A DNA stretch of 64,000 nucleotides, taken from sequence record PZ445515.1. One strand, written 5' to 3'. The notes under the pieces were generated by a model. The model saw nothing but the letters and a program-made list of their open reading frames with translations. It was not told where the DNA came from and did no database searches. The stretch comes from a phage. Within the stretch, counting starts at the first letter, position 1. Each line of letters starts with the position of its first letter. Of the stretch, positions 6,685-43,796 are shown in pieces. Position numbers and translations under genes: made by a program.

Positions 6685-6713
6685 TTGCTTTTTACTGTAT
6701 ATATTGGTATAAT
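6685..6713 (+). promoter_or_regulatory. sigma70-type early promoter
   Basis: TTGCTT -35, 17 bp spacer, TATAAT -10. Confidence 0.55.
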
Positions 6714-6786
6714 ATATTTGTAAGTTGATAAACAAGATCTTTTTGTTGATCCTCTGTTAGCGAAGTACACTATAGGAGTGTTATTT

Positions 6787-7539
6787 ATGGGAAAAGCACG
6801 TCAAAAAAGAGAGAACCGCAATGGTTCAAGAAAGCGTGGCAACAAGTATGAGAATAACGTAATTCAGGCTGATTTTTCTAATGATTACGCTAACCCAGTT
6901 GCTAAATCCCTAGTAGGTAAAAACCGCGAGCAAAAATCATATATCAATATGATCAAGAACAACACAGTGACTGTGGGCATCGGTGAGCCAGGTACTGGTA
7001 AAACCTTTATTCCGTCCGTTCTTGCAGCTCAGGAACTCGTAGACATTCACTCAGATATTGAGCAAGTGATCCTCGTACGTCCTAATGAACCTCTAGGTAA
7101 GTCTCTTGGTATGCTTCCTGGTGATCTAGCAGAAAAGCTAGAGCCTTGGTTGGAGCCAATAGCTGATGGTATGAAATGGGCCATCGGCGATCATGCCTAT
7201 AAGGGATATGTCGAACGTCAGAAAATTAAATTTTTGGCTGTCGAACATGCTCGTGGCAGAACTTTCAACAACTCCTATGTAATTGTCGATGAAGCTCAGA
7301 ATATTTCCGTTGAGGCAATGATTTGTCTTCTAACTCGTGTAGGGCAAGACTGCCGTTTAATTATCTGCGGAGATATAGCTCAGAAAGACATTAAAGGTGA
7401 CTCAGGTCTAGCACTCCTTATGGAAGTCTATGAGAAATACGAAAATGCCCCATTCTCAATGATCGAATTGATTGATAACGTTCGTTCTGTTGAGTCTAAA
7501 GCATTCTATGACATCTTTAAAGACATGGGGAAGGTGTAA
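6787..7539 (+). CDS. phoH: PhoH-like ATPase
   Basis: Walker A GEPGTGKTF and DEAQN Walker B; ATG at 6787 after GGAG. Confidence 0.85.
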   Translation: MGKARQKRENRNGSRKRGNKYENNVIQADFSNDYANPVAKSLVGKNREQKSYINMIKNNTVTVGIGEPGTGKTFIPSVLAAQELVDIHSDIEQVILVRPNEPLGKSLGMLPGDLAEKLEPWLEPIADGMKWAIGDHAYKGYVERQKIKFLAVEHARGRTFNNSYVIVDEAQNISVEAMICLLTRVGQDCRLIICGDIAQKDIKGDSGLALLMEVYEKYENAPFSMIELIDNVRSVESKAFYDIFKDMGKV

Positions 7540-7540
7540 T

Positions 7541-7762
7541 ATGGGAAACGTCGTTCATCTGAGCCGTAAAACTAAAATACATCGTACTTCACTGAGTGCT
7601 GCTAATATGATTACACGTAAGGAAGGGGAAGAAAGTCCTAAGACAACCCTAGCGTGGAAAATTGTAACCTCAAATCCAAATAAACCATTCAATTATAACG
7701 AGTTGAGCACCTCCATAGATATTCTATTAAAAGAAGTAGCTAGAACTAAAGTAATTGAATAA
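7541..7762 (+). CDS. hypothetical protein
   Basis: 73 aa ORF, ATG immediately after phoH stop. Confidence 0.45.
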   Translation: MGNVVHLSRKTKIHRTSLSAANMITRKEGEESPKTTLAWKIVTSNPNKPFNYNELSTSIDILLKEVARTKVIE

Positions 7763-7904
7763 GCTAAAAAGCTAGACTGGTAATATACAGGGCCTGGGTA
7801 TGAAAATACTCGGGCCTTTTCTATCAGAAAATTTTATTTGCCTAATGACCGATAATAAAGTAGAATATTCCTTAAATCCTGATAACTATAAAAAGGAAAG
7901 CCAA

Positions 7905-10235
7905 ATGAGCCATCGCATTGAAAAAGTAATTAAACGTGACGGTACTGTAGAAGACTTTGCTCCTGAAAAAATCAATGGTTGGGCAGAGTATGGTTGCAAA
8001 ACAGTTGATGTAAGCTGGTCAGCCATTACTATGGCTGCTCAAAAAACTCTGCCTAAAGGGGTTGTAGATTCCGACACTCTGATGGATGCATTAATTAAAG
8101 CTGCTGAAAGTCTTATTAAAGATAATCCAGCATACGATGTGCCAGCAAAGGAATTACGTCTTGCGCAAATGCGTAAACGCCTTTATGACTCTTTCGAACC
8201 ACCTTCTTTACGCTTCTTCCATGACCACATGGTTAGCGTAGGTGCATGGGAAGACATGAGTGCATGGATTACCGATGAGCAATTTGAAGCTCTGAATCAG
8301 GTTATCGACCATGATCGTGACCGTCTTTTTACTAGTGGTGGGCTGAAGCAGTTCTTTGATAAGTATTCCCGTCGTAATATAGCCACTGGTGAAATTTATG
8401 AAACCCCGCAATTCGCCTACATGGGTATGGCAATGGCGATGTTATCTCAACCTAACTGGACAATTCTAGATGCAATCGACCTCTACAACGCAATGTCGCT
8501 CCACAAAATCAACGTTCCTACGCCGCCACTGGTTGGTCTGCGCTCTAGTGACCGTGGATTTGCTAGTTGCTGTCTCGTGGATTCCACTGACACGTTGGAT
8601 TCAATCGACACCGCCGAGCACATCGTCTTCAAAATGGTCGCAGCCAGAGCGGGAATCGGGTATCATCTTGAAAGCCGATCAATTGCTGATCCGGTGCGAA
8701 ATGGGGCATTCCCGCATTCCGGAAAACTGCCGTATTATCGACACATTGACCGCTCAGTAAAGGCCAATACTCAGCAAACTCGTGGTGGTTCTGCTACAGT
8801 GTCTTATCCATACTTCGACCCTGAAATCATTCAATTGATGCAGGTTAAGCAACAACGTGCTACAGATGAGAATAAAATCGATAAGATGGATTATTCTCTG
8901 AGCTTTAACAATCTTTTGTTAAAACGTTATCTTAAAAACGAAGATATTACGCTAATGTCATACTTCTATGCTCCAGAAGTTCATGAAGCGTTTTATAGTG
9001 ATGACGAGGCTAAATTTGAAGAAATCTACGTGGCAGCGGAGAAACGTGTGGCATCTCTTACAAAGATCGACCACGAAGGAAAAACAGTTCCTGCAGCTCC
9101 TAAAGTCTCTGCAAAAGAAATCCTAGATACTTGGCTACGTATCCGAATGGAAACAGGACGTATGTATGCTCACCACATTGGGGAATCTAATCGTCACGGT
9201 AACTTCCTTGATCCGATCCGTATGACAAACCTTTGTGTTGAAATTACTCAGCCTACACGCCCGTTCCATCACATTACAGAGCTGTACAAGACAAAAGAGC
9301 AGCTTGATCAAATGAAGCCGGAGGATATTGGTGAAGTATCTCTGTGTAACTTAGGTGGTGTTGTACTTGGACGCATGGAATCTCTGGCTGAGTGGGAAAA
9401 AACTTGCTACATCCTTCTGAAATTCGTTGATACAATTATTGAAATTCAGGATTATCCGTTCCCAACTATGGAATATACGGCTAAGAAACGTCGTAATGTC
9501 GGTATTGGCCTAATGAACGCAGCAGGTGCAATGGCAGCAGAAGGTCTGGCTTACGAAGGTATTGAAGCTCGTAACTGGATCCACCGTGAGGCTGAAAAAC
9601 TGTCTTACTTCCTGCATAAAGCCTCTGTACGCCTGGCTAAGGAACAGGGTGCATGTGAGTGGTTTGATCGTACTAAACCATCTAAAGGAATTCTGGTAAT
9701 CGACACGTACAAGAAAACTGTTGATGAGCTGGTATCCGTAGGTCTAGAAATGGACTGGGAGTCTCTGCGTGCAGATATTCTGAAATATGGTATGCGTAAC
9801 TCTGTTCTGACTGCTCAGATGCCGGGAGAAAGTTCTTCTGTTCTGTTAGGTGTTACTAACTCTATCGAACCACCTCGTAAGATTGTATCTATCAAGGGTA
9901 GTGCAGTAAATAAAGTAATTGCAATTGCTCCAGGTGCAACCGATTGGGAAACGTTAATGAGCTATAAATTGGCTTATGATGTAGATCGTATCGAGTGGAT
10001 CAAATGGGTAGCAACTATGCAGAAATTCTTCAGCCAGTCTGTTAGTACTAATATGTACTACGACTACACCAAGTTTGAGAATGAAATTATTCCTGGCCCA
10101 GTAGTAGTTCGTGATTTCATGACTGCTGTTAAATACGGGTGGAAAACTTGGTATTATGCTAACTTCAACACCGCAAATGGTGGTGGTGCTGGAGAAGAAG
10201 CAGCTGGTTGTGCATCAGGCGGTTGTACTATTTAA
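7905..10235 (+). CDS. nrdA: ribonucleotide reductase class I large subunit
   Basis: 776 aa from ATG 7905; N-terminal ATP-cone (VIKRDGTVEDF), C-terminal CxxGGC tail. Confidence 0.9.
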   Translation: MSHRIEKVIKRDGTVEDFAPEKINGWAEYGCKTVDVSWSAITMAAQKTLPKGVVDSDTLMDALIKAAESLIKDNPAYDVPAKELRLAQMRKRLYDSFEPPSLRFFHDHMVSVGAWEDMSAWITDEQFEALNQVIDHDRDRLFTSGGLKQFFDKYSRRNIATGEIYETPQFAYMGMAMAMLSQPNWTILDAIDLYNAMSLHKINVPTPPLVGLRSSDRGFASCCLVDSTDTLDSIDTAEHIVFKMVAARAGIGYHLESRSIADPVRNGAFPHSGKLPYYRHIDRSVKANTQQTRGGSATVSYPYFDPEIIQLMQVKQQRATDENKIDKMDYSLSFNNLLLKRYLKNEDITLMSYFYAPEVHEAFYSDDEAKFEEIYVAAEKRVASLTKIDHEGKTVPAAPKVSAKEILDTWLRIRMETGRMYAHHIGESNRHGNFLDPIRMTNLCVEITQPTRPFHHITELYKTKEQLDQMKPEDIGEVSLCNLGGVVLGRMESLAEWEKTCYILLKFVDTIIEIQDYPFPTMEYTAKKRRNVGIGLMNAAGAMAAEGLAYEGIEARNWIHREAEKLSYFLHKASVRLAKEQGACEWFDRTKPSKGILVIDTYKKTVDELVSVGLEMDWESLRADILKYGMRNSVLTAQMPGESSSVLLGVTNSIEPPRKIVSIKGSAVNKVIAIAPGATDWETLMSYKLAYDVDRIEWIKWVATMQKFFSQSVSTNMYYDYTKFENEIIPGPVVVRDFMTAVKYGWKTWYYANFNTANGGGAGEEAAGCASGGCTI

Positions 10236-10243
10236 TAAAAACA

Positions 10244-10268
10244 AGGAGATCTTCGGGTCTCCTTTTTC
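10244..10268 (+). terminator. rho-independent terminator
   Basis: Hairpin aggagatc-ttcg-ggtctcct then TTTTTC. Confidence 0.7.
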
Positions 10269-10281
10269 TTTGAAATTTTAC

Positions 10282-10310
10282 TTGCTAATCGCTACCAGAT
10301 TTGCTATAAT
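10282..10310 (+). promoter_or_regulatory. T5-type early promoter
   Basis: TTGCTA -35, 17 bp, TATAAT -10. Confidence 0.6.
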
Positions 10311-10341
10311 ATTCCTGAAATAGTGAGAAAGAGGAAAATCA

Positions 10342-12875: not shown

Positions 12876-12900
12876 AATAGCCCTTCGGGGCTATTATATT
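12876..12900 (+). terminator. rho-independent terminator
   Basis: Hairpin tagccc-ttcg-gggcta followed by T-rich run. Confidence 0.65.
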
Positions 12901-12910
12901 TAAATTTCAT

Positions 12911-12939
12911 TTGCTTATTTAGTGAAATTTAAATATAAT
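12911..12939 (+). promoter_or_regulatory. T5-type early promoter
   Basis: TTGCTT -35, 17 bp, TATAAT -10. Confidence 0.6.
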
Positions 12940-12965
12940 ATATTTTATAGATTGGAGATACACAT

Positions 12966-13169
12966 ATGGGACTCTTTAGAAAGAAAGTTTATTTAACAGA
13001 AAGCCAAGAGCACAAACTTCTTACTCTATCAGAACATTATCATTTACCCTATGACTACTTTGTAGATAGAGCAATAGAGGAACTCTTAGATAGGGAATTA
13101 GCGGCTATAAAACCTAACCCTCCCATCCCACCAAAAACCAGAAGTGTAGCAGAAGGTGAAAAGCCATGA
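12966..13169 (+). CDS. hypothetical protein
   Basis: 67 aa ORF behind promoter. Confidence 0.5.
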   Translation: MGLFRKKVYLTESQEHKLLTLSEHYHLPYDYFVDRAIEELLDRELAAIKPNPPIPPKTRSVAEGEKP

Positions 13170-13923: not shown

Positions 13924-13944
13924 TAAATAAATTAAAAAATTCTC

Positions 13945-13973
13945 TTGCTTAAAGCCCTATAATTTAGTATAAT
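13945..13973 (+). promoter_or_regulatory. T5-type early promoter
   Basis: TTGCTT -35, 17 bp, TATAAT -10. Confidence 0.55.
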
Positions 13974-14000
13974 ATTCGTATTGAAAGTGAGGAGGGCTTT

Positions 14001-14285
14001 ATGCGGATCTATAACTCAAATTCATTAGGATTTAAACCATTGAGAAAACGTGCACAATCACCTCGTCAAATAAGAAAGGCTAATATTGGCGAGCCAGAAA
14101 CACGTCTTCCACCTCCTCCAGAACAACGTTTAGTTTATTTGGACGAAGAATTAGCGGAACGCGAAAGAAAAGCTCAAGAAGAGATTGAGCGTAAGAAAAT
14201 GTGTACTGCTCCAGCCTACTCCAAAGGGGCTTATCAGTATATCTATACAGCCGAGGAGGCTAAAGATGCGGGGCGTAAAAAATGA
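14001..14285 (+). CDS. hypothetical basic protein
   Basis: 94 aa ORF. Confidence 0.5.
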   Translation: MRIYNSNSLGFKPLRKRAQSPRQIRKANIGEPETRLPPPPEQRLVYLDEELAERERKAQEEIERKKMCTAPAYSKGAYQYIYTAEEAKDAGRKK

Positions 14286-14731
14286 AGATTACTGAATTTA
14301 AAGGTACTTATAGTTTCTTATCTAACTTTTATTTATCACCAATTACTTTCGAATATCTAAATGAGATATGGCATGCTGATACTGTAGAACATGCTTTTCA
14401 GGCTATGAAATCCGACCAAAAAGATGATGTAGCTCATGTACTCCGCTCCCTAAATGCAGGAGTTGCTAAACGTAGAGGACGTAAATTAACCCTACGCTCT
14501 GACTGGGATAAAGTAAAAGATGATGTAATGCTAGAGCTTTTACGATTAAAGTTTGCAATTCCTGATTTAAGAGATAAACTGTTAGCAACAGAAAATGCAA
14601 CTTTGATCGAAGGAAATACCTGGGGAGATACATATTGGGGTGTTTGCCGAGGCATCGGGGATAATACTTTAGGAGTCCTTTTGATGCAAGTAAGGTCTGA
14701 AATTAAAAGAAGCTTACAGTTAATAAATTAA
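14282..14731 (+). CDS. NADAR / YbiA-family protein (N-glycosidase-like, possible ADP-ribosyl hydrolase)
   Basis: 149 aa; motifs LSNFY, EHAFQAMK, EGNTWGDTYWG, GDNTLGVLLMQVR match YbiA/NADAR core. Confidence 0.8.
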   Translation: MKITEFKGTYSFLSNFYLSPITFEYLNEIWHADTVEHAFQAMKSDQKDDVAHVLRSLNAGVAKRRGRKLTLRSDWDKVKDDVMLELLRLKFAIPDLRDKLLATENATLIEGNTWGDTYWGVCRGIGDNTLGVLLMQVRSEIKRSLQLIN

Positions 14732-14738
14732 AAATTCA

Positions 14739-14768
14739 TTTGCTAAACGCTTCAAATTCTCGTATAAT
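14739..14768 (+). promoter_or_regulatory. T5-type early promoter
   Basis: TTGCTA -35, 18 bp, TATAAT -10. Confidence 0.6.
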
Positions 14769-14806
14769 ATACTTCATAAATTGATAAACAAAAAGGAAAA
14801 CAAATA

Positions 14807-15909: not shown

Positions 15910-16611
15910 ATGAAAGTAAAACCATTTGGTATGCTAGATATTGAATCTCTGGGAACTCCAGGAGATTGTGGTACTACTCATATCGCAATGCCTTCTTTCG
16001 CTTTTGTGGCTATGCATGGAATTGATAAAGACCCTGATCTAGTATTTGTTACTTTGGATGTACAAGATCAGCTTAATTCTGGTGCTAAAGTTACAGCATC
16101 TACTCTAGCATTCTGGATGGATCAAGCTAAAAATAGCCCGTCTGCTATTCACATTATGGAAGCTATGAAGGAACGTAATCCAAAACTGATTGCCTTCCAA
16201 AATGGTAAACATCATTGCACTAATAAATTTGGCTCAAACTATGCTGCCTTCTCTATGGCTCAAAATATTATGGAGTTGGCTCTAGGCGAAAATGCTTTGT
16301 ATTATGGTAATGGCCCAGAGTTTGATATGACTATCTACTCTGCAAACACATTCCATGCTGGAACCAATGAAGAGGTAGTTCCGTGGAAATTCTGGAATTT
16401 GGGCAATGTTCGATCTCTTCGTAATCTCTGGATGCAAGCTGATTATAGTTACAAAGATCTAGAGGCTGAAGGTATTAGCTGGGCAAAAGCTAAAATGGAG
16501 AAGATGGACACCATTCGTTATGGGATCTATCCGGTTAAGCATGATCCTGCATTTGATGCCTTAGTTGAAAGCTATTGTGTTGCAGCTATGATCGAAAAAA
16601 TGAAAATTTGA
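15910..16611 (+). CDS. putative DEDD-type 3'-5' exonuclease-like protein
   Basis: 233 aa; MLDIESLG (exo I-like) and HDPAFDA (H-x4-D exo III-like); assignment tentative. Confidence 0.35.
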   Translation: MKVKPFGMLDIESLGTPGDCGTTHIAMPSFAFVAMHGIDKDPDLVFVTLDVQDQLNSGAKVTASTLAFWMDQAKNSPSAIHIMEAMKERNPKLIAFQNGKHHCTNKFGSNYAAFSMAQNIMELALGENALYYGNGPEFDMTIYSANTFHAGTNEEVVPWKFWNLGNVRSLRNLWMQADYSYKDLEAEGISWAKAKMEKMDTIRYGIYPVKHDPAFDALVESYCVAAMIEKMKI

Positions 16612-16612
16612 T

Positions 16613-16641
16613 TTGCTTCCGGCTCCAAAATTCTGTATAAT
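16613..16641 (+). promoter_or_regulatory. T5-type early promoter
   Basis: TTGCTT -35, 17 bp, TATAAT -10. Confidence 0.6.
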
Positions 16642-16681
16642 ATATTCATAAATTTGAGAAAACAATAAAAGGAAAACAAAT

Positions 16682-17556: not shown

Positions 17557-17938
17557 TAATTTAAAAGCTAGTAAATCGGTAGACGAAAGCCCAAGCATCT
17601 TACCTCGCAGCAGCGGTTGAAATACGAGGTTAAATAAGACCGCTGACCATACTATAAAGTATAATCTATTGGAGATTATGTTTATTACACCAGCCTTTTA
17701 AGCTGACACGTAAGAACAAAGCGTCGTTGATATTACCGACACAACTTCAAAGATCAACATTTAAGTATGAAAGCTGAAAAGTTTAAAGAACTCAAACTTC
17801 TAAACTTCTAAAGCTAAAAGATGCAAAGTATTCGTTGATGATTCAAACCCTAGATCAAAGGTACATGGCTCATAAGATATGGCCTGTGGCGCCTCTAGGC
17901 TGTTTATCGGTTTACTAGTTTCACAATTTAAAAATGTA

Positions 17939-17968
17939 TTTGCTAATTTACTAAGTTATCTGTATAAT
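17939..17968 (+). promoter_or_regulatory. T5-type early promoter
   Basis: TTGCTA -35, 18 bp, TATAAT -10. Confidence 0.6.
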
Positions 17969-17998
17969 ATATTTTTAAATTGATGAAACGAGGCTATT

Positions 17999-18321: not shown

Positions 18322-18771
18322 ATGAAGGCAGCTTTGCTTTTAGTAGCTGCCCTTACCTTCAGCTTTAGTAGTCAGGCATCGCACGATGCAAAAGAAATAG
18401 ATTGCATTGCTAAAAATATCTATTTCGAAAGTCGTGGTGAGGGCATAAAGGGAATGACGGCGATTGCACATGTTACTAAAAACCGTGTAAACTCCGGTAA
18501 ATTCCCAGATTCCTACTGTAAAGTAGTATATCAGTCTAACCAGTTCTCTTGGGTATCTAAGAGACCAAAAGTTGATAAAACTGATGAGGCTTGGCAAACC
18601 GCTAAGAATTTAGCTAGAGTGATATACTACGTTGATTTACCACAAGATCCTACATATGGAGCACTATACTTCCATAGTGGTAAAGATAAACCTTACTGGA
18701 CAAAGAAGTTTAAGAAAACAACTAAGATTAAGGGACATACATTCTATAAACCTGTTGTCACTAAAACTTAA
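18322..18771 (+). CDS. secreted cell-wall hydrolase (SleB/CwlJ-like)
   Basis: N-terminal signal peptide; IAKNIYFESRGEG...AIAHVTKNR...FP-SYCKVVYQSNQFSW matches hydrolase_2 family. Confidence 0.6.
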   Translation: MKAALLLVAALTFSFSSQASHDAKEIDCIAKNIYFESRGEGIKGMTAIAHVTKNRVNSGKFPDSYCKVVYQSNQFSWVSKRPKVDKTDEAWQTAKNLARVIYYVDLPQDPTYGALYFHSGKDKPYWTKKFKKTTKIKGHTFYKPVVTKT

Positions 18772-18778
18772 AAATTTA

Positions 18779-18808
18779 CTTGCTTAGCTACTTAAATTTC
18801 TGTATAAT
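18779..18808 (+). promoter_or_regulatory. T5-type early promoter
   Basis: TTGCTT -35, 18 bp, TATAAT -10. Confidence 0.6.
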
Positions 18809-18838
18809 ACTTTCATAAATTAATGAGAGGAAGCGAAA

Positions 18839-19010: not shown

Positions 19011-19444
19011 TGGGTGAAAATATTCTAATGACCCTTCGTGGACTACTTAGTCTAGCACGTACTCACGGTGATAAGGAACGGGCACTTAATCTTCAGACCA
19101 TGATTGGTGATCTGCAACGTATTGATAAAGACATTGTTACTCGAACCGAGTTCGTAGCCTATCTGAAAGCTCAGATTAAGGCTCTAGAAAATGCAAAACA
19201 ACGCGCTATTAAAGTTGGTATGGAAGTTCCTACTGATGTAGACTATGAGCAACTGCTTTATTCCATGCTGCAAGAGTATCAGCCAAGTCAACTGACTGAG
19301 GTTCAGATTCGTGAGTATTTTGCAGAACTGGTTAAATTAAACCCAGGTATTACCAAAGCTCTATTAATGAAAACTATTAAGGCAGAATTTCCCGGACGTT
19401 ATGACGGTAAAACAACTGCTTTGATTGCTAGTGAATTTTTCTAA
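19010..19444 (+). CDS. hypothetical protein
   Basis: 144 aa ORF. Confidence 0.55.
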   Translation: MGENILMTLRGLLSLARTHGDKERALNLQTMIGDLQRIDKDIVTRTEFVAYLKAQIKALENAKQRAIKVGMEVPTDVDYEQLLYSMLQEYQPSQLTEVQIREYFAELVKLNPGITKALLMKTIKAEFPGRYDGKTTALIASEFF

Positions 19445-19452
19445 AAATTCAT

Positions 19453-19481
19453 TTGCTAAATGCTTATAAATTCTGTATAAT
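19453..19481 (+). promoter_or_regulatory. T5-type early promoter (no ORF follows)
   Basis: TTGCTA -35, 17 bp, TATAAT -10; followed by about 800 nt without ORF. Confidence 0.6.
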
Positions 19482-19704
19482 ATATTCATAAATTAGGGAA
19501 CAGCGAGCCGATTACGCTGAGTGCAGAATCCCAACCGGAGCGCATTGAATAGAGTCGGTGGGTTAGTTGTAAAACTAGTACACAGGGGGCGGCAATCCCG
19601 GTTAGTGGCTAGAACGTGTAAAATGAGGCGTCTGAAACCTCTCCCCTAAACTCTTCTCTGATTTATAAATAGTGGGGTGTGGAAATCACTTATGTAGTAA
19701 CACT

Positions 19705-19776
19705 GCCGTCCTAGTATAATTGGTATTATCAAGCCGTAACTGGTGGAAGATGTAGGTTCGAATCCTACGGTCGGTA
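19705..19776 (+). ncRNA. tRNA-like element (no encoded CCA, poor D/anticodon arms)
   Basis: T-arm gtagg-TTCGAAT-cctac and 6/7 acceptor pairing, but no 3' CCA unlike all other tRNAs here. Confidence 0.3.
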
Positions 19777-20278
19777 AGAACTGGATAACTGATGCTTTTA
19801 ACATAAAAGCTTCCGAGGTTAGTTGCGCACTGCCTAAACCACGCGGTAGTTGGTTCCAGACTAACCAACCAGTCTGCTGAATAGTTTTATTACGATTTAA
19901 CTATGTCCAGGCTAAAGAAGAACTTTAGAAGGTATTCTAGGATAGTGAAGTTCTTTCTCCATATCGGAGTAGTTTTTCAAGCTATCCACAAAGTGGGAAA
20001 TGCTGACATGAGAGATGTCACTAATGGTGCACAATAGCACAGGTAATTCGCGATAACTCCTGTTGAGTAGCAGCAAAAGGTGGGAAGTCATGACCCCAAG
20101 CCTAACCGAGTCCTCAATATACCGCAGGACATAACCACTAAGTCACCCTGACTTAAACTGGAAAATAATAGACGTTACTGTATTTTGTCTTGAAATACTT
20201 AATGAGTGAGACTTATGACTCTCCCGGTATCGTCTGTATTTTTAAGAGTTTTTACGAGAGTTCTTAAAAATACTTAAA

Positions 20279-23082: not shown

Positions 23083-23289
23083 ATTTTGACACCTCCTAGT
23101 ATATAGAAAATGTGTGTCTCTTTGATCACTCATCCATAACATATACTTTACACTACCCCAGCGAAAATGTCAAGGGGTCTTTAAAAATTGCCCCCGGATT
23201 TTTAGTGGGGTCACAAATTTTGGTCCTCCCCACTTATCTGCTACCCTTAAGTGCCCTATGATTTTCCTCTAAAAAGTTAAAAAATTTGA

Positions 23290-23318
23290 TTGCTTGAATG
23301 CTAAATTCTCTGTATAAT
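23290..23318 (+). promoter_or_regulatory. T5-type early promoter
   Basis: TTGCTT -35, 17 bp, TATAAT -10. Confidence 0.6.
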
Positions 23319-23348
23319 ATATCTATAAATTTGAGAGAGGAACCAAAT

Positions 23349-23867
23349 ATGAATGTTGATGAGCTAACACAGCACCTCTTATCCAGAGGATTTGATACAG
23401 ATAAATATCATTGCTGGTTAAGTCCGGAAGGATGGCTAACAGTCCCGTTGTATGACTTCTCCGGGATGTTGCGAGGCTATCAGACGTATAATCCTTCTGC
23501 TCCAAAAGGTCATGGTAAGTGTCCCTTTGAAGCTAAATATTTTACTTATTCTACTACCCAGTGTGTATGGGGACTAGAAACTCTCAATGGAGATGAAAAA
23601 GTAGTATTGATCGCTGAATCTGTATTTAAGGCAGTTGCGCTACATAACGCTGGTTATCCAGCCCTGGCAATGTTAGGTTCTTCTCCAGGAAAAGCGTTAT
23701 TAAAGCAACTGAAATTATTACCTTTTAAATTGGTAGCTGTCGGAGACAACGATCCTGCGGGTGAAAAATTTGCTAGAAAATTAAACGGCTTTGTTTCTCC
23801 CGTAGATGTGGATGAGATGTCTACCGAAAACTTGAAAAATTTTCTTGCTATGAAGCTAAATTTCTAA
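23349..23867 (+). CDS. hypothetical protein with Toprim-like motif
   Basis: 172 aa from ATG 23349; VVLIAESVFKAV...VGDNDPAGEKFA resembles Toprim fold; tentative. Confidence 0.35.
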   Translation: MNVDELTQHLLSRGFDTDKYHCWLSPEGWLTVPLYDFSGMLRGYQTYNPSAPKGHGKCPFEAKYFTYSTTQCVWGLETLNGDEKVVLIAESVFKAVALHNAGYPALAMLGSSPGKALLKQLKLLPFKLVAVGDNDPAGEKFARKLNGFVSPVDVDEMSTENLKNFLAMKLNF

Positions 23868-23873
23868 TATAAT
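23845..23873 (+). promoter_or_regulatory. T5-type promoter overlapping CDS end, driving tRNA cluster
   Basis: TTGCTA -35, 17 bp, TATAAT -10. Confidence 0.5.
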
Positions 23874-23888
23874 ATATCTTATAAATTC

Positions 23889-23974
23889 GGAAGAATAGCA
23901 TAACGGTATTGCAGCAGATTGCTAATCTGTCGGTTTGAAATATAGCCTTGTGGGTTCGATTCCCACTTCTTCCG
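23889..23974 (+). tRNA. tRNA-Ser (anticodon GCT)
   Basis: Acceptor ggaagaa/ttcttcc, anticodon loop TTGCTAA, long variable arm, T-loop TTCGATT, CCA encoded. Confidence 0.8.
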
Positions 23975-24279: not shown

Positions 24280-24465
24280 ATGTCCAAGTTTCAAGAACTC
24301 AAGCAAGAGCTAGAAGAATGTGCCTGCCCTGAGTGTAGGGGAATTGGTGAAAGTTCTGATGCAGAAGCAGGAGATACTTTTTGCAATATCTGGATTTGTT
24401 CAAATTGCAACGGTACAGGTATTAATCCTAACTGCGGTGTTTCCCTAGATATTGAACGAGGATAA
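24280..24465 (+). CDS. small Cys-rich (zinc-ribbon-like) protein
   Basis: 61 aa; CPEC...CSNC pairs. Confidence 0.5.
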   Translation: MSKFQELKQELEECACPECRGIGESSDAEAGDTFCNIWICSNCNGTGINPNCGVSLDIERG

Positions 24466-25025: not shown

Positions 25026-25055
25026 CTCCTCCAAACAGAATTTTTAAAAATGTAC

Positions 25056-25085
25056 TTGCCTTTTGCTTTAAATTTCTGGTATAAT
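25056..25085 (+). promoter_or_regulatory. T5-type early promoter
   Basis: TTGCCT -35, 18 bp, TATAAT -10. Confidence 0.5.
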
Positions 25086-25115
25086 AGTTATATAAATTGA
25101 TGAAGGAGTTAACGA

Positions 25116-25391: not shown

Positions 25392-25427
25392 CTAATACAG
25401 CACTGAGCAAGTTCTTTAAAATTTGAC

Positions 25428-25456
25428 TTGCTCAGTGCCATAAAACTTGATATAAT
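25428..25456 (+). promoter_or_regulatory. T5-type early promoter
   Basis: TTGACT/TTGCTC -35, 17 bp, TATAAT -10. Confidence 0.55.
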
Positions 25457-25519
25457 AGTTATCTAATTTGGAAACATATCTAAAAGTGTTTAAACTAGTA
25501 TTTGAATACTTTTAAATAT

Positions 25520-25857: not shown

Positions 25858-26142
25858 CCAAATTGAGGGAGCTGCTGATGCACCCTGAAAACTTCTTTAT
25901 TTACTGCGCGGATAAGTTGCTGAAACGTAGAATTAACAAAGTCTATCATTATCGTGCTAGTCAACAGCCTTATGTATACGCTTTTGACGGTGATCACATT
26001 CCATTAGAACAATTATCCTGTGATTACATGATATTGAAGAACTTTGACGAGACAAAGATCTCAAGCGTTCATAATCGACAGAATCCCTTAACGTGGAAAT
26101 ATAAGAAGAAAAAGAAAGGCATCAAATTTTTAAAAAATGTAG

Positions 26143-26171
26143 TTGCTTAGTTTCCAAAAGTTCTGTATAAT
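26143..26171 (+). promoter_or_regulatory. T5-type early promoter
   Basis: TTGCTT -35, 17 bp, TATAAT -10. Confidence 0.6.
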
Positions 26172-26219
26172 AATTACATAAATTGAACTGGAGAAGCAAC
26201 ATGACAGAACAAGATAAAT

Positions 26220-26292
26220 CGACCGTTGGCTGAATGGCTTAGGCGAAGGATTGCAAATCCTTTTTATGTGAGTTCAAATCTCATGCGGTCGT
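26220..26292 (+). tRNA. tRNA-Cys (anticodon GCA)
   Basis: Acceptor cgaccgt/gcggtcg, anticodon stem aagga/tcctt loop TTGCAAA, T-loop TTCAAAT, CCA encoded. Confidence 0.8.
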
Positions 26293-26297
26293 CCAAT

Positions 26298-27278: not shown

Positions 27279-27670
27279 TAAAATTTCAGTGCAGAACACG
27301 GAGCTAGCAATTCGGAAGTGCTGACTCATGATAAGCTGCCTATGTACTTGCGAAGCGGTCGTGTCCAAGACTCGGACTCTTGCACTGAAAACAATCAAAC
27401 ATTCTAGCGTGGTTGATGGGGAAACCAGCTTGGCGAGGGCAGAAGCTCGTTCGATTCGAGTGAAAGAATGGTTCTCGTAAGTCCGCACAAGTGATAACAG
27501 GTTCGAGTCCTGTCTAGAATGACACTATAAAGTTTACTTATTATGTAGGTTCCGATAGATCGGCGGGTCTATTCTGGCACTTAAGAGAGGTCTCGCAAAC
27601 TTCTTTGTCAGCCGTGGGGTTGGTAGCCTCCAGGTGGCCTACACAATAAGTAAATTTATTAAAAATTCAT

Positions 27671-27699
27671 TTGCTATTATGCTTAATTCTCTGTATAAT
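27671..27699 (+). promoter_or_regulatory. T5-type early promoter
   Basis: TTGCTA -35, 17 bp, TATAAT -10. Confidence 0.6.
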
Positions 27700-27731
27700 A
27701 TACCTTATAAAGTGTTGAGAAGGAAAGCAAA

Positions 27732-28363: not shown

Positions 28364-28384
28364 CCAATTTCAAGAAAAACGCAG

Positions 28385-28413
28385 TTGCTTAATGCTTAAT
28401 TTCTTGTTATAAT
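28385..28413 (+). promoter_or_regulatory. T5-type early promoter (drives non-coding block plus tRNAs)
   Basis: TTGCTT -35, 17 bp, TATAAT -10. Confidence 0.6.
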
Positions 28414-28430
28414 ATTTATATAAATTGATG

Positions 28431-28650
28431 AGGAGAAATCCTCATCATAGTTCACTAAGGTATTAGCTCGACCTAGGACTGGCTGCCAAAAAGCACGATC
28501 CCTACGATTCGGGAGAAGTTCTAGATTAGTCCACTAGATTCAGTGGCAACTGAATAGTGTATCGGGTTTGCGAGATGACGCGGTTCCTTCCGCTCGAAGC
28601 GAAGGTGCTGTAGTTACGCCGAGCTAATAGCCTTAGTAAACTAAATAATT
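28431..28650 (+). ncRNA. candidate structured non-coding RNA
   Basis: No ORF; hairpin gatgagga...tcctcatc at 5' end; 10-nt complementary pair tattagctcg/cgagctaata enclosing about 150 nt. Confidence 0.3.
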
Positions 28651-28651
28651 T

Positions 28652-29027: not shown

Positions 29028-29119
29028 GGTAGGTCAATCCAATGGCTGGCGCTGGACTCCGACTTGAAATCGGTTGATCGTAGTGATACGGTGTAAGGGT
29101 TCGATCCCCTTACCTACCT
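29028..29119 (+). tRNA. tRNA-Ser (anticodon TGA)
   Basis: Acceptor ggtaggt/acctacc, anticodon loop CTTGAAA, long variable arm, T-loop TTCGATC, CCA encoded. Confidence 0.75.
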
Positions 29120-29488
29120 CCAAATCCTGAAGTATGCCGGAATCGGTAGACGGGGCTGCCTAAAAGGTTTATAGGGAACATCCACTCCCTGCAACATACC
29201 TCATAAAGCGGCTGAGATAAATGGTCTATCTCGTGAAGGTTCAAGTCCTTCTGCTTCTTGATACACCAATGGCTCAAAGTGTAACGGTGCTATTTGATGC
29301 GCTTAGTAAGACTTCCCCGACATGCGTTCGGGAGTAAGCTGCTAAGACTAGAGTAGAAGAGTTTCTGAGAGCCGCCACAATTGAAAATTCGTACTCGTCT
29401 TGAGCTGCGTGCAATAGGAGATAACTTGATTAGTATTCTAGAACATGCTAATTGAGGAAGGTTTCGCTAACCCTGCGAGTTTTCAATT

Positions 29489-29562
29489 GTGGCTATATCA
29501 TAATTGGTTAATGATCCTGATTGTGAATCAGGCCTATGTGGATTCGAATTCCACTAGCCACC
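29489..29562 (+). tRNA. tRNA-His (anticodon GTG)
   Basis: Acceptor gtggcta/tagccac, anticodon stem cctga/tcagg loop TTGTGAA, T-loop TTCGAAT, CCA encoded. Confidence 0.8.
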
Positions 29563-29590
29563 CCAAATTAACTTAAATAGGAAATAAAAT

Positions 29591-29785
29591 ATGGCTGATT
29601 TCTGCAAACAATGCTCCATTGATATGTGGGGTAAAGATACTGGTGATCTTTCTGGTTTGATTACAGAAGCTGAGGTCAAAGAAGGTTATGGTGCAGTTGT
29701 GATTTGCGAAGGATGCGGCGTTATTCGTGTTGATCATGAAGGCAAACGTTTGGAAGAATCTGAGCCAACAACAATTTTTCCGTAG
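29591..29785 (+). CDS. small Cys-rich (zinc-ribbon-like) protein
   Basis: 64 aa; CKQC...CEGC pairs. Confidence 0.5.
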   Translation: MADFCKQCSIDMWGKDTGDLSGLITEAEVKEGYGAVVICEGCGVIRVDHEGKRLEESEPTTIFP

Positions 29786-29797
29786 AATAAAAATTAT

Positions 29798-29870
29798 TGG
29801 GATGTAGATCAATTGGCAGATCGTCGGCCTCTGACTCCGAAGGTTCCACGTTCGATCCGTGGCATCCCAG
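29798..29870 (+). tRNA. tRNA-Gln (anticodon CTG)
   Basis: Acceptor tgggatg/catccca, anticodon loop CTCTGAC, T-loop TTCGATC, CCA encoded. Confidence 0.8.
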
Positions 29871-29879
29871 CCAAATAAT

Positions 29880-29952
29880 TGGAGAGTAGTGTAACGGTTA
29901 GCACAACGGCCTTTGACTCCGTTAATGGTAGGTTCGATTCCTCCTTCTCCAG
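29880..29952 (+). tRNA. tRNA-Gln (anticodon TTG)
   Basis: Acceptor tggagag/ttctcca, anticodon loop CTTTGAC, T-loop TTCGATT, CCA encoded. Confidence 0.8.
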
Positions 29953-29962
29953 CCAAACAATA

Positions 29963-30036
29963 AGCGGTTAAGCACACGGGTTGTGCCGCAGGCCTTCCAA
30001 GCCTCGCTGAGTAGGGTTCGATTCCCTCTAGCCGCT
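29963..30036 (+). tRNA. tRNA-Gly (anticodon TCC)
   Basis: Acceptor agcggtt/tagccgc, anticodon loop CTTCCAA, T-loop TTCGATT, CCA encoded. Confidence 0.8.
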
Positions 30037-30573: not shown

Positions 30574-30741
30574 ATGTTTAAATTATTAGTAGTTATCTGG
30601 TATAGTCAATCAAATAGAGCGAATACCTCCCACGTTATAGACTTTAATACTAAAAATGAAGCTGAAAAAGCATATTCTAATTTAATAGAACGTAATAAAG
30701 AATCTCGTAGTATAGTTTATGAAGTGACTAAACTTTATTAA
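30574..30741 (+). CDS. hypothetical small membrane protein
   Basis: 55 aa from ATG 30574; hydrophobic N-terminus. Confidence 0.45.
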   Translation: MFKLLVVIWYSQSNRANTSHVIDFNTKNEAEKAYSNLIERNKESRSIVYEVTKLY

Positions 30742-30748
30742 AAATTCA

Positions 30749-30778
30749 TTTGCTTTCTCTCTTATTTATTGTTATAAT
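30749..30778 (+). promoter_or_regulatory. T5-type early promoter
   Basis: TTGCTT -35, 18 bp, TATAAT -10. Confidence 0.6.
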
Positions 30779-30808
30779 ATTTATATAAATTAATGAGAGG
30801 GAAGCCAA

Positions 30809-33137: not shown

Positions 33138-33154
33138 ATTCTGAAATAATTCAT

Positions 33155-33183
33155 TTGCTAAACCTCTCTTTTCTTGCTATAAT
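33155..33183 (+). promoter_or_regulatory. T5-type early promoter
   Basis: TTGCTA -35, 17 bp, TATAAT -10. Confidence 0.6.
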
Positions 33184-33213
33184 ATGTTTATAAATTGATG
33201 AGAGAGGTTTGAA

Positions 33214-35228: not shown

Positions 35229-35265
35229 AAGCCCAGCCTGCACTTTTGCGACTGGGCTATTTTTA
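35229..35265 (+). terminator. rho-independent terminator
   Basis: Hairpin agcccag...ctgggct followed by ATTTTTAT. Confidence 0.6.
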
Positions 35266-35278
35266 TAATAAAATTTTA

Positions 35279-35307
35279 GTTGCTTAGATGCCCAAACTTT
35301 TGTATAA
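35279..35307 (+). promoter_or_regulatory. T5-type early promoter
   Basis: TTGCTT -35, 17 bp, TATAAT -10. Confidence 0.6.
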
Positions 35308-35339
35308 TATGTTTATAGATTGAGGCAAGAGGATTAAAT

Positions 35340-39315: not shown

Positions 39316-39326
39316 TTAATAACTGA

Positions 39327-39349: not shown

Positions 39350-39392
39350 AGGCAAAGGGGGCTTTAATAATTTTTGAAGATAGGAGAAAGCC

Positions 39393-39809
39393 ATGTTTGC
39401 AGAACTATTCACTATGATGCTGCTAGGTATCTGGAAAATAAGTCTAGTAGTATTCGTTTTAATGATAGTCTTTACTATCATTGCATTAACTACCCGAAAT
39501 AGCTTATTAATAAAGGTTATTCACGGACTAGAGTATATAATTATGGGTTCATTCGGCGTTTGTAAATGCAATTGCCATAGAGATACGAAATATTGTTGGT
39601 TATGGATGGAACTAGAGAATCCTATATCCATAGCTTTGGCTGTTTCATTCGGTATGATTCTTATGGCCCTTACTCTAGCATTAATACCTTTGATGTTAGC
39701 TGGGGGAGTTACAGCGTATTTCACCCTTTTCTCCCCGATACTTATGTACTCAATTTACCCAATAACTATGTATCTAGTTAGGAAAAAATTTATACATGCA
39801 GTAGATTAA
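39393..39809 (+). CDS. hypothetical membrane protein
   Basis: 138 aa, several hydrophobic segments. Confidence 0.5.
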   Translation: MFAELFTMMLLGIWKISLVVFVLMIVFTIIALTTRNSLLIKVIHGLEYIIMGSFGVCKCNCHRDTKYCWLWMELENPISIALAVSFGMILMALTLALIPLMLAGGVTAYFTLFSPILMYSIYPITMYLVRKKFIHAVD

Positions 39810-39822
39810 GATAAAAAAGTAG

Positions 39823-39851
39823 TTGACTTTTAGCCCTAGTTATTATATAAT
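39823..39851 (+). promoter_or_regulatory. T5-type early promoter
   Basis: TTGACT -35, 17 bp, TATAAT -10. Confidence 0.6.
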
Positions 39852-39884
39852 ATATACATAAATTAGTTAAGAGAGGTATATATT

Positions 39885-40599: not shown

Positions 40600-40605
40600 T
40601 AAACA

Positions 40606-40636
40606 AAGCCTGATCTTAGCAGATCAGGCTTTTATT
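40606..40636 (+). terminator. rho-independent terminator
   Basis: Hairpin agcctgatct-tagc-agatcaggct followed by TTTATTTT. Confidence 0.75.
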
Positions 40637-40640
40637 TTAC

Positions 40641-40668
40641 TTGCTTTTTGCTAAAATTTTGGTATAAT
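40641..40668 (+). promoter_or_regulatory. T5-type early promoter
   Basis: TTGCTT -35, 16 bp, TATAAT -10. Confidence 0.55.
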
Positions 40669-40779
40669 ACTTATATAAATTGATAAGAGAGCCATTAATA
40701 TGCTTACGCCACCTATCTTTGCAGGGATTTTAGCCATATTAATGGACATCTTTGCCACTCAAGAAATAGGAGTATTACG

Positions 40780-42272: not shown

Positions 42273-42571
42273 TGAATGATAGAATGAAAGAAGTACGAGA
42301 AGAATTACGAGCAATGCGTATTGATGCCCTTCGTTGGAGGGCATTAGTTAATGCTTTCGTCAAAGGAGATACGGGGGTAATATATTCTGGGATAGCAGTC
42401 AATTTTTGTTTTAATTCTCCTACTGAAATAGAGGTAGAAACAAGGCTTACTACCTATCTTAATGAGGTAGACCTTAAGGAAGGAGAGACTTCCGAGGAGT
42501 TTAAAACCAAAGTGTTAACCTCTTGGGTTGATAGTTTAATACAGAATAAGGAAAAGAGTAATGAAAGTTAA
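42272..42571 (+). CDS. hypothetical protein
   Basis: 99 aa ORF. Confidence 0.5.
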   Translation: MNDRMKEVREELRAMRIDALRWRALVNAFVKGDTGVIYSGIAVNFCFNSPTEIEVETRLTTYLNEVDLKEGETSEEFKTKVLTSWVDSLIQNKEKSNES

Positions 42572-43151
42572 ATTCTGGTCAGACTTGCACCTAGACCACC
42601 CTGGAGCGTTACGTTTCCGTCCGTGGTTTAAGAACATGAAAGAGCACGATGAGTATATTCTAGATACTTTGTCCAAGCATATTGGTAAACGAACAAAACT
42701 TATTTTGCTAGGAGATATTGCAGTAGGTCGTGAAGGTCTAGCTAAATTAAAGTCGGTTATCCACAATGTTCCTAATCAACTGATTATGGGTAATCATGAT
42801 GCAGAACGTCAGGGACTGAGCATTAGGGACTTGGCGGAAGTTTATGACGATATTCAGGCTCTAGGTAAACAGACTGGAGGTGGCAAAAAGTTTTGGCTAT
42901 CTCACTGCCCTTTGCACCCTAATGAACTTCGTGGCAAACTAAATATTCACGGACACGTACATACTACTTCTCTACGTGATCCACGTTATATCAATGTCTC
43001 ATTTGAAATGAGTAAAACTCCAATTCCACTAGAAGATATTGTGTCTGGTAAGTTTACTAGTTACGATAGAGTAGTTAATTGTACTACCGGCGAGGTATTA
43101 CAAATAGGGGAAGACGTAGCTGCTGTATTGCGTGGTGATATAAATGTCTGA
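42561..43151 (+). CDS. metallophosphoesterase (calcineurin-like)
   Basis: 196 aa; SDLHLD, GDIAVG, GNHD, GHVH motifs. Confidence 0.7.
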   Translation: MKVKFWSDLHLDHPGALRFRPWFKNMKEHDEYILDTLSKHIGKRTKLILLGDIAVGREGLAKLKSVIHNVPNQLIMGNHDAERQGLSIRDLAEVYDDIQALGKQTGGGKKFWLSHCPLHPNELRGKLNIHGHVHTTSLRDPRYINVSFEMSKTPIPLEDIVSGKFTSYDRVVNCTTGEVLQIGEDVAAVLRGDINV

Positions 43152-43258
43152 GTATATAGCTGAGGCTATTATTAAACGAATTATACAAGCGATAGCAATA
43201 CTTATAATCATTTGTATTGCTATTGGTACAGGATTAGGCATTTTAATTAAAAGTTTTA

Positions 43259-43288
43259 TTTGCTAAAATGCCTAAGTTTCTGTATAAT
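43259..43288 (+). promoter_or_regulatory. T5-type early promoter
   Basis: TTGCTA -35, 18 bp, TATAAT -10. Confidence 0.6.
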
Positions 43289-43318
43289 TACTTTATAAAT
43301 TGATGAGAAGGAATCAAA

Positions 43319-43750
43319 ATGAACAAAGTTGATAAAGCTCTAGTTTTCGCAGCAGCAGATAAGTTTGAACAAGTTAAGGCAACTTTCCGAACCTTGTTCC
43401 AGTCTTACGTTCAAGATAAGTCTAATCCTATCTCTGAACGTTTGATGGTCTGGGAATGCCGTGCTTGCAATGCCCTATTAATTGCGGATTATCGTAGCGA
43501 TATAGATAAAGATCTGTGCGAAATTCTTATCGCTGAGGAAGCAGAACGTTATCAGTTAATCTCTTTCCAAGATTTGGCGGAGCATATCATCCCTGATGAT
43601 CTTTGGGACAAATACTACGGTGATCCTGAAGATGAAGGAATGACTCCAGAAGCATGTATTGAGCTGATCTGCAAAGATCATCCTGAAATTGCAGAGAAAT
43701 TTGAAAAGGTTTTTGCTTCTGAGTTCTCCGGCGTTGTTAACGATTGGTAA
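43319..43750 (+). CDS. hypothetical protein
   Basis: 143 aa ORF. Confidence 0.55.
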   Translation: MNKVDKALVFAAADKFEQVKATFRTLFQSYVQDKSNPISERLMVWECRACNALLIADYRSDIDKDLCEILIAEEAERYQLISFQDLAEHIIPDDLWDKYYGDPEDEGMTPEACIELICKDHPEIAEKFEKVFASEFSGVVNDW

Positions 43751-43767
43751 GTAATTAAAAAATTCAG

Positions 43768-43796
43768 TTGCTTTAAGCCTTAAAATTCTGTATAAT
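43768..43796 (+). promoter_or_regulatory. T5-type early promoter
   Basis: TTGCTT -35, 17 bp, TATAAT -10. Confidence 0.6.

Follow-up and report, generated by a model that had tools for sequence, protein, structure and literature searches.

Work on the early promoters of bacteriophage T5 goes back to the 1980s, and widely used expression vectors are built on them. Homologies among T5 promoters outside the two hexamers were reportedly noticed by Gentz and Bujard in 1985. T5 early promoters are reported to be transcribed by the E. coli sigma-70 holoenzyme from 7 nt after the -10, with early kinetics (Gentz and Bujard 1985, as cited in PMC7472727). In the T5-like phage AKFV33, 32 promoters share TTGCTw, a 17-18 bp spacer and TATAATA, with AAAAATT near -43 and TAAATT at +1 (Niu et al. 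2012, PMC3326045). The T5 early promoters themselves have a common upstream (UP) element, -35, -10 and ATATT discriminator, and several, including P15A and Ppol, have been validated by primer extension; how T5 switches between temporal classes with the host sigma-70 polymerase alone is an open question (Klimuk et al. 2020, PMC7472727). Here we analyze a promoter-leader module that is repeated along a 64,000-nucleotide stretch of phage DNA (sequence record PZ445515.1; the whole stretch is called the window, and its first letter is position 1). The modules are the known, annotated T5 early promoter family with ribosome-binding leaders. The first-pass annotation, which had described them from the letters alone, was correct and its subject ordinary: given the AKFV33 consensus, the description by Klimuk et al. 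and the T5 annotation, the finding was already known, and as a discovery it matters little. The points added here are an orthologue footprint of the first nine transcribed bases (+1..+9), a separation of the transcript start from the Shine-Dalgarno (SD) block, a contrast between early and other promoter classes, and conservation across genera. The AKFV33 paper treats the +1 motif as AT-richness only, without start/SD separation, constraint measure or cross-genus comparison.

The window is DNA of bacteriophage T5. The parts that were compared are 100% identical to Escherichia phage T5_ev212, and many Tequintavirus genomes are 91-99% identical to the window. Along it lie the leftward early region with its tRNA cluster, the beginning of the rightward early arm, the pre-early region (A1, dmp) and the junction with the receptor-binding protein gene. 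Across this region the T5 reference record, AY543070, carries ~30 annotated 75-bp 'promoter' features, many of them named, and 23 of the 29 parts listed below match such a feature by BLAST at 91-100% identity (P-H207 at 100%). The hexamer at 43288 corresponds to P-F30 by a coordinate conversion derived from the BLAST mapping, with no direct alignment. The PN25 sequence matches T5 63048-63117 at 100%, within the feature 'promoter P-N 25' (63043-63117). This locus belongs to the rightward early arm and lies a few kb past the window's left edge; PN25 itself is absent from the window, which holds only two relatives with 3 mismatches. Since the AY543070 annotations coincide with the modules, and PN25 joins the family at 52 bits when scored with the position weight matrix (PWM) derived from the window, the proposal that the modules are T5 early promoters and kin of PN25 is supported. 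The described T5 early promoters, P-H207, P-N25, P-N26, P-K28a, P15a and others, are the same elements, with equal positions, orientation to early genes and consensus. What separates T5_ev212 from reference T5 is gene-cassette indels between modules and, inside the modules, point substitutions in spacers and discriminators.

TTGCTW-N16-19-TATAAT is matched exactly at 22 sites of the window, where dinucleotide-preserving shuffles lead one to expect 0.24, and none of 100 shuffles reached 22; a repeated module does exist, as had been claimed. The range first assigned to it, 6685-43796, holds 20 of the sites, all on the + strand, and misses two on the - strand that lie outside (4517-4489 and 61725-61697). 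Its spacer, described as 17-18 bp, is 17 bp at 21 of the 22 exact sites and 16 bp at the remaining one (40641), and none of them has 18 bp. The description of the sites as intergenic is only roughly right: the last codons of the gene in front often reach into the A-rich upstream tract, and part of the module at 23845-23873 falls within the 3' end of the open reading frame (ORF) 23349-23867. A PWM derived from the exact sites, with 45 columns ending at the last base of the -10 hexamer and 14 more after it, finds 27 sites above 8 bits, where the best score in 20 Markov shuffles is 7.2. Members with imperfect hexamers added in this way have -10 ends at 25085, 25456, 39851 and 1247 (- strand), with weak ones at 7866 and 47079, and the scan puts the family at ~28 members. 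Scanning with a generic sigma-70 consensus gives no excess over shuffles (45 vs 47; 47 vs 62), so the signal is the specific module and not promoter-likeness. The combination TATAAT-N5-7-ATAAATT occurs 18 times against 0.07 expected, and the leader is thus conserved independently of how the sites were selected. The modules and candidates, with the evidence for each, are as follows.

6669..6743, + strand: early promoter module 5' of phoH, with a diverged start GTAAGTTGA and a 67-nucleotide (nt) leader; exact motif and PWM, 100% identical to AY543070 53638-53712.
7822..7896, + strand: weak candidate, TTGCCT-17-TAGAAT, in the annotated 5' end of nrdA; PWM 16.1 bits, no T5 promoter annotation found.
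10266..10340, + strand: early promoter module 5' of nrdB, after a terminator hairpin at 10243-10264, with a diverged start; AY543070 50061-50135.
12895..12969, + strand: early promoter module after thy, with a hairpin 5' of the module and the start ATAGATTGG; exact motif and PWM.
13929..14003, + strand: early promoter module after rnh, with the start ATTGAAAGT; AY543070 46337-46411.
14724..14798, + strand: P-H207, -10 end 14768; 100% identical over 66 nt to 'promoter P-H 207'.
16597..16671, + strand: early promoter module with an ATAAATT start and ATG at +35; AY543070 44393-44467.
17924..17998, + strand: early promoter module; AY543070 43067-43141.
18764..18838, + strand: P-D/E33, -10 end 18808; AY543070 'promoter P-D/E 33'.
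19437..19511, + strand: P16-17, -10 end 19481, driving the 'RNAX' non-coding stretch and tRNAs, ATAAATT kept; AY543070 mapping.
23274..23348, + strand: P15a, -10 end 23318, whose leader ATAAATTTGAGAGAGG is the window's closest to PN25; AY543070 mapping.
23829..23903, + strand: P15b, -10 end 23873, with tRNA-Ser from +9 of the predicted transcript, ATAAATT kept; AY543070 mapping.
25041..25115, + strand: P15c, -10 end 25085, with -35 TTGCCT and an 18-bp spacer; PWM and AY543070 mapping.
25412..25486, + strand: P14a, -10 end 25456, with -35 TTGCTC, driving the tRNA-Tyr/Glu/Trp/Phe cluster, no SD/ATG; PWM and AY543070.
26127..26201, + strand: P14b, -10 end 26171, followed by a 10-codon mini-ORF and tRNA-Cys; exact motif and AY543070.
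27655..27729, + strand: P13a, -10 end 27699; exact motif and AY543070 mapping.
28369..28443, + strand: P13b, -10 end 28413, driving the structured stable RNA 'RNA2H'; AY543070 mapping.
30734..30808, + strand: P11, -10 end 30778; exact motif and AY543070 mapping.
33139..33213, + strand: early promoter module with the full consensus leader ATAAATTGATGAGAGAGG; AY543070 26722-26796.
35264..35338, + strand: early promoter module; AY543070 24443-24517.
39807..39881, + strand: early promoter module with -35 TTGACT; 100% identical to AY543070 19368-19442.
40624..40698, + strand: early promoter module with a 16-bp spacer, adjoining a terminator hairpin at 40605-40632; AY543070 18550-18624.
43244..43318, + strand: early promoter module, P-F30 by coordinate conversion; exact motif.
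43752..43826, + strand: early promoter module with the top PWM score (64 bits); 100% identical to AY543070 16245-16319.
47035..47109, + strand: weak member with -35 TTGACG and no ATAAATT start; PWM 12.3 bits, AY543070 13212-13286.
1217..1291, - strand: early promoter module of the opposite arm (rightward in T5), with -35 TTGCAG; PWM 34.7 bits, sequence like that of the T5 promoter at 58999-59073 when compared by eye, unaligned.
4459..4533, - strand: early promoter module of the opposite arm, PN25-like (TTGCTTTCAG..., AGATTT ATAAATTTGAGAGGAG), adjoining the nrdD terminator; AY543070 55708-55782.
61667..61741, - strand: early-class module 5' of a small signal-peptide-like ORF, beside the receptor-binding protein gene; PWM 56.8 bits.
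54736..54810, - strand: candidate related promoter in the pre-early region, with TAGCTA, TATAAT, ATACAT and ATAAATTAATGAG; TATAAT-N5-7-ATAAATT match, below the PWM threshold.

To describe the module column by column, we lined the sites up by their -10 hexamers and computed the information content of each column. Conservation reaches well past both hexamers used for selection, while the flank columns stay at the small-sample background of ~0.1 bit. An A-tract, AAAAATTCAT, lies immediately 5' of the -35. The UP-like AAAAaTttA upstream of the -35 holds 0.66-1.34 bits per column, mostly at least 0.75, and its four-base A-tract changes by 1-3% between orthologues. The spacer is patterned (gCT...AAATTCTG), and the six-base discriminator is A/T-rich with the paralogue consensus A-t-a-t-t-y. 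The ATAAATT columns that follow hold 0.75-1.1 bits and lead into (G/A)A and the purine block; a perfect ATAAATT is present in 17 of 28 modules. Positions -12..+2 of PN25 read TATAATAGATTCAT, a register that puts the transcript start at the A of ATAAATT. Called ORFs begin at +20 to +28 in 19 of 23 cases and at +25 +/- 2 in 16 of 23. The distance from the end of the SD core to the start codon is 4-10 nt, in most cases 6-8 nt. Each + strand module is followed by + strand ORFs or tRNAs of the early region, and the - strand modules are followed by - strand early genes.

The orthologue footprint covers 24 modules and 102 non-redundant orthologues from T5, three Kenya isolates, Eps7 and, where alignable, Klebsiella Sugarlandvirus. 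Mismatch between orthologues is 0.3% in the -10 hexamer, 2.1% in the -35 hexamer and 2.8% over +1..+9 (ATAAATTGA), with 0-1% at +1..+3, compared with 6.3% in the SD zone, 5-7% in the flanks, 10.3% in the spacer and 9.6% in the discriminator. By this measure, the first nine transcribed bases are under purifying selection about as strong as that at the -35 hexamer. The discriminator and spacer keep a paralogue consensus, yet drift freely at single sites. Conservation is not limited to the -35 and -10 hexamers: the leader is non-random and is conserved among paralogues, among orthologues and between genera.

The module is also specific to one temporal class. Five early promoters of the other arm (P-N25, P-N26, P-K28a, P31A and the ligA promoter) score 36-56 bits with the window PWM and have an ATAAATT-type start in common, whereas pre-early P-H22, late P-G25 and P-J5, and P-K28b score at most 16 bits, carry TTGACA or TTGATA and have no ATAAATT. 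Because a site with ATAAATT and TAGCTA is found in the pre-early region (54810-54736, - strand), this early-class specificity is strong, not absolute. In the early regions of relatives, hits number 24 in Eps7, 20 in Klebsiella phage DevonBitter, 8 in Aeromonas phage AhSzq-1 and 21 in Vibrio phage 70E37-2, nearly all on the coding strand. The architecture is found in Epseptimavirus, Sugarlandvirus, Shenzhenvirus and a Vibrio phage, and the Aeromonas and Vibrio phages have A1 proteins just ~34% identical to that of the window. If no sequence past the -10 is used to choose the sites, conservation of the discriminator and of +1..+9 persists in all the genera. The +1..+9 consensus is ATAAATTGA in the T5, Eps7, Klebsiella and Aeromonas phages and AtAaAaTgA in the Vibrio phage.

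The Vibrio phage additionally repeats one leader, TATAAT-ACTTGT-ATAGAATGAAGAAACGGAGA, near-verbatim in at least 6 modules, or about nine when ATAAACT variants are included (scan offsets e.g. 17994, 22745, 23612, 30475, 36874 and 38912, with the -10 ending ~45 bp further). This repetition suggests a local duplication or a lineage-specific optimum.

Modules that drive RNAs separate the two parts of the leader. There are four of these: P15b (tRNA-Ser at +9), P14a (tRNA-Tyr at +58), P16-17 ('RNAX') and P13b ('RNA2H'). ATAAATT is perfect in three of the four, P14a having CTAATTT (5/7), and none has an SD/ATG at the usual place (+25); in P13b the SD-like GAGGAG is base-paired within a 5' hairpin. 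Since ATAAATT is kept without SD/ATG at these RNA promoters, +1..+9 serves transcription and the purine SD block serves translation. The tRNA and stable-RNA promoters are in this sense a natural dissection, which marks the +1..+9 element as transcriptional, not translational. The first-pass annotation had proposed that the initial transcribed region is co-selected for promoter escape and translation initiation. Both roles stand, but they belong to two adjacent elements and not to one, GAGAGG/ATG being kept only before ORFs.

The composition of the leader points to promoter escape as well. Over +1..+20 the modules are 74% purine and 3.5% C, compared with 61% purine and 12.4% C in the equivalent stretch 5' of 41 promoter-less internal genes, and the first C in the transcripts of the window modules falls at a median of 19.5 (0-based), ~+20. 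The PN25 leader, ATAAATTTGAGAGAGGAG, is one instance of the module leader and has the purine-rich, C-free composition in common with it; N25 has no C before +30. The initial transcribed sequence of PN25 was reportedly recognized as governing promoter escape by Kammerer et al. in 1986 and in work by Hsu and co-workers. In N25anti, where an 'anti' version takes the place of the native purine-rich transcribed sequence of N25, the escape half-life rises from 3.0 to 44.5 min (PCR-fragment template) and productive synthesis is down about ten-fold (PMC12464699). Selection of the initial transcribed region for promoter escape, as first suggested for the modules, agrees with these PN25 experiments, its experimental basis being PN25 alone, and with the purine-rich, C-poor composition.

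The explanation that we favor, and consider very probable, is that the modules are sigma-70 early-class T5 promoters, each joined to a fixed-geometry 5' leader that aids escape and then translation. One ~75-bp block would start both the transcription and the translation of an early gene cassette. The A-tract AAAAATTCAT would serve as an UP element for the alpha subunits of RNA polymerase, followed in order by the non-consensus -35 TTGCTW, a 17-bp spacer, a perfect TATAAT and a 6-7 nt AT-rich discriminator (ATATTC). The transcript would begin at the A of ATAAATT(G/A)A and continue into a purine-rich, almost C-free stretch with the SD core GAGG/GGAG, with the start codon mostly near +25. Very tight polymerase binding would make the promoters strong and, as a consequence, would make leaving the promoter rate-limiting; the conserved A/T-then-purine transcribed sequence would then let the polymerase escape efficiently, and the SD part would recruit ribosomes to the unstructured leader. 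Family membership, conservation and class specificity are direct observations; the PN25-type escape role would apply to the other ~27 modules by analogy.

Several points weigh against this explanation. The start sites of the modules, predicted 7 nt after TATAAT, are taken from the PN25 register, and the members at 6713, 10310, 13973 and 47079 lack the ATAAATT start. The escape role was measured only on PN25 and engineered variants (PMC12464699), and the native transcribed sequence of N25 is not just an optimum, given that Hsu and Han term the promoter 'escape rate-limited' with this sequence in place. Nor does a general need for purine-rich, C-poor transcripts account on its own for the retention of exactly ATAAATT in different genera. 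Finally, with its 9.6% mismatch between orthologues, the discriminator does not mirror the regulatory role proposed by Klimuk et al. (2020) in strong site-by-site constraint.

A rival that we consider rather unlikely is compatible with the escape-and-translation explanation. It holds that the discriminator and transcript start, beyond merely tuning escape, form a class-specific element for temporal control, on after second-step DNA transfer and off at late onset, read via a phage-modified polymerase (e.g. gpT5.026) or a phage DNA-binding protein. The occurrence of the ATAAATT start and ATATTC discriminator at early promoters of both arms and their absence from annotated pre-early and late promoters speak for it, as does the retention of the exact heptamer across genera with such distant A1 proteins. 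It is also favored by the ATATT common to early promoters and by the effects of gpT5.026, which weakens polymerase binding to the -5/+2 non-template segment and whose loss raises early transcripts and lowers late ones (Klimuk et al., PMC7472727). Yet few parts of the module change faster between orthologues than the discriminator, an ATAAATT-start site is also present in the pre-early region, and no factor is known to bind +1..+9. The class-specific discriminator and transcript-start block is an obvious candidate cis-element for the T5 temporal switch. In a narrower version, which we regard as unlikely, +1..+9 (ATAAATTGA) would be a dedicated Demerecviridae early cis-element, read by sigma-70 as a pause or by a phage-modified polymerase and helping to set the early programme, and more than a generic escape-friendly sequence. 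The idea arises because the block is constrained like the -35, is common to four genera and is absent from annotated late and pre-early T5 promoters.

It is quite unlikely that selection on the mRNA maintains the entire leader, ATAAATT and all, as an A/U-rich landing site for the ribosome (S1) or a determinant of 5'-end stability. The leader is short, unstructured and A/U-rich before its purine block, the start codon follows at a nearly fixed distance, and A/U-rich enhancers 5' of SD sequences are established in E. coli. Against an mRNA role, three of the four ORF-less modules keep ATAAATT, one of them with a tRNA at +9, the SD-like part of P13b is paired in a hairpin, and internal genes of the same operons are translated without an ATAAATT leader. 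The variant concerning 5'-end stability is unaffected by these data.

A further reading takes +2..+7 (TAAATT; TAGAAT in part of the Vibrio phage modules) as a -10-like hexamer that is re-read by sigma-70, with a promoter-proximal pause near +17, as at lambda pR', that would help to retain sigma or to load a phage factor. We judge this very unlikely. The hexamer keeps T1, A2, A4 and T6 of TATAAT and sits one base downstream of the position of the lambda pR' pause element, AACGAT at +1..+6, which pauses at +16 (PMC4005639). Among the transcribed positions of the Vibrio phage, conservation peaks at +3 (A) and +7 (T), the analogues of the two key -10 bases. However, the information content in T5 does not single out +3 and +7, and four Vibrio modules have CAAAAT, without T1. 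TAAATT, with 4/6 matches to the -10, is found at +2..+7 in 14 of 27 modules, a pattern not distinguishable from general AT-rich conservation, and any AT-rich conserved heptamer resembles a -10. The likeness of the two transcript starts (+1..+6 in lambda, +2..+7 here) may accordingly be mere AT-richness. Lambda pR' has a sigma-dependent pause and the Q system, whereas the T5 modules are likened to it by sequence alone and no membership is claimed. At P15b a tRNA starts at +9, so a regulatory pause complex of evident purpose would not fit there, and for N25, although it is heavily studied, the literature searched yielded no account of such a pause.

Arbiol et al. reportedly described promoter-stem-loop (PeSL) mobile regulatory cassettes in T4-type phages in 2010. 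T5 is like them in having many early promoter copies that flank small early cassettes, and differs in showing neither a breakpoint excess nor recent copying. That the modules are recombination substrates shuffling early cassettes in this manner, or are homogenised by gene conversion, is highly improbable and for T5 largely refuted: in chained BLAST alignments of the window with T5, three Kenya isolates and Eps7 (56 unique indel events, 97 edges), 20 of the 97 edges lie within 25 bp of a module versus 8.4 under a uniform null (p = 2e-4), but under a gene-boundary null there is no enrichment, 12 of 22 module-bearing junctions being hit and 44 of 76 module-less ones (Fisher p = 0.81), and +1..+9 similarity is 0.53 within the genome vs 0.51 between genera. 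No pair of T5 leaders exceeds 78% identity over 32 nt, and the Klebsiella phage, compared by segment, shows no excess of within-genome over between-genus module identity. The several near-identical leaders of the Vibrio phage are what speaks for copying.

The leader has further features. The consensus leader TT(G/A)ATGAGAGG holds an ATG at ~+9 that has no SD of its own (18817, 30787, 33192, 43297, 43805 and others). This ATG opens mini-ORFs of 4-12 codons and is probably incidental; at 43811 it is in frame with the real gene, and there the ORF listing picks it as the start instead of 43829. G+C-rich terminator hairpins directly adjoin several modules (10243-10264, 40605-40632, ~12884-12903 and ~4537-4560), so that the T-run of the terminator merges with the upstream A/T tract of the promoter. 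Terminator and promoter features likewise overlap at the equivalent sites of the T5 record.

The weak nrdA site (7838-7905) reads TTGCCT-17-TAGAAT followed by AAAGGAAAG, with an ATG near 7905, and falls within the nrdA coding sequence 7800-10235. Eps7 and the Klebsiella phage carry a similar weak site. The true nrdA start may be this internal ATG near 7905, giving a protein of 776 and not 811 amino acids.

Two of the RNA-driving modules precede long stretches without an ORF. The RNA 3' of P13b (28420-28651, + strand) is ~230 nt long and ORF-less, and folds at -87.7 kcal/mol (z = -6.45 vs shuffles) with a closing stem of ~22 bp; eight base pairs of this fold are preserved by double changes in the Eps7 copy. 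The T5 record labels it 'RNA2H, stable RNA with unknown functions', and no homologue was found at the Klebsiella, Aeromonas or Vibrio phage loci. 3' of P16-17 (19488-20278, + strand), ~800 nt without a convincing ORF correspond to the T5 label 'RNAX, stable RNA with unknown functions' (719 nt). The 5' end of this stretch (AGCGAGCCGATTACGCTGA) is conserved in Eps7 and Klebsiella Sugarlandvirus, right after the orthologous promoter. An Rfam search of both non-coding stretches returned nothing but tRNAs: the RNA2H equivalent has no match, and the sole match in the RNAX equivalent is a weak tRNA at 19705-19776 (35.5 bits) that ARAGORN does not call. Two weak tRNA-Sec-like Rfam matches on the + strand, 29028-29118 (37.6 bits) and 29963-30036 (31.1 bits), are below the gathering score of 47 and are likewise without an ARAGORN call; in the region equivalent to 29028-30036, the T5 record has tRNA-like 'stable RNAs' and tRNA-Ser/Gly genes.

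Within the tRNA cluster, P14b is followed (26202-26234, + strand) by a good SD, an ATG and the mini-ORF MTEQDKSTVG*, which overlaps the 5' part of tRNA-Cys (26220-26295). Reference T5 has the 43-codon ORF T5.070 at this place instead. A 61-amino-acid ORF in the same cluster (24280-24465, + strand) is labelled 'Phage antitermination protein Q' in the matching record, a label that looks automatic.

At the other end of the window, the small ORF 3' of the module at 61667..61741 is putatively llp. Identity to LR597659.1 ends at the first base of that record, which is window position 60691; past ~60692 the window continues with the small signal-peptide ORF and then the receptor-binding protein gene (61751-63508). 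Since the identity stops at the record's first base, the window spans the ends of a collapsed genome record, with one terminal repeat and a circularly permuted assembly.

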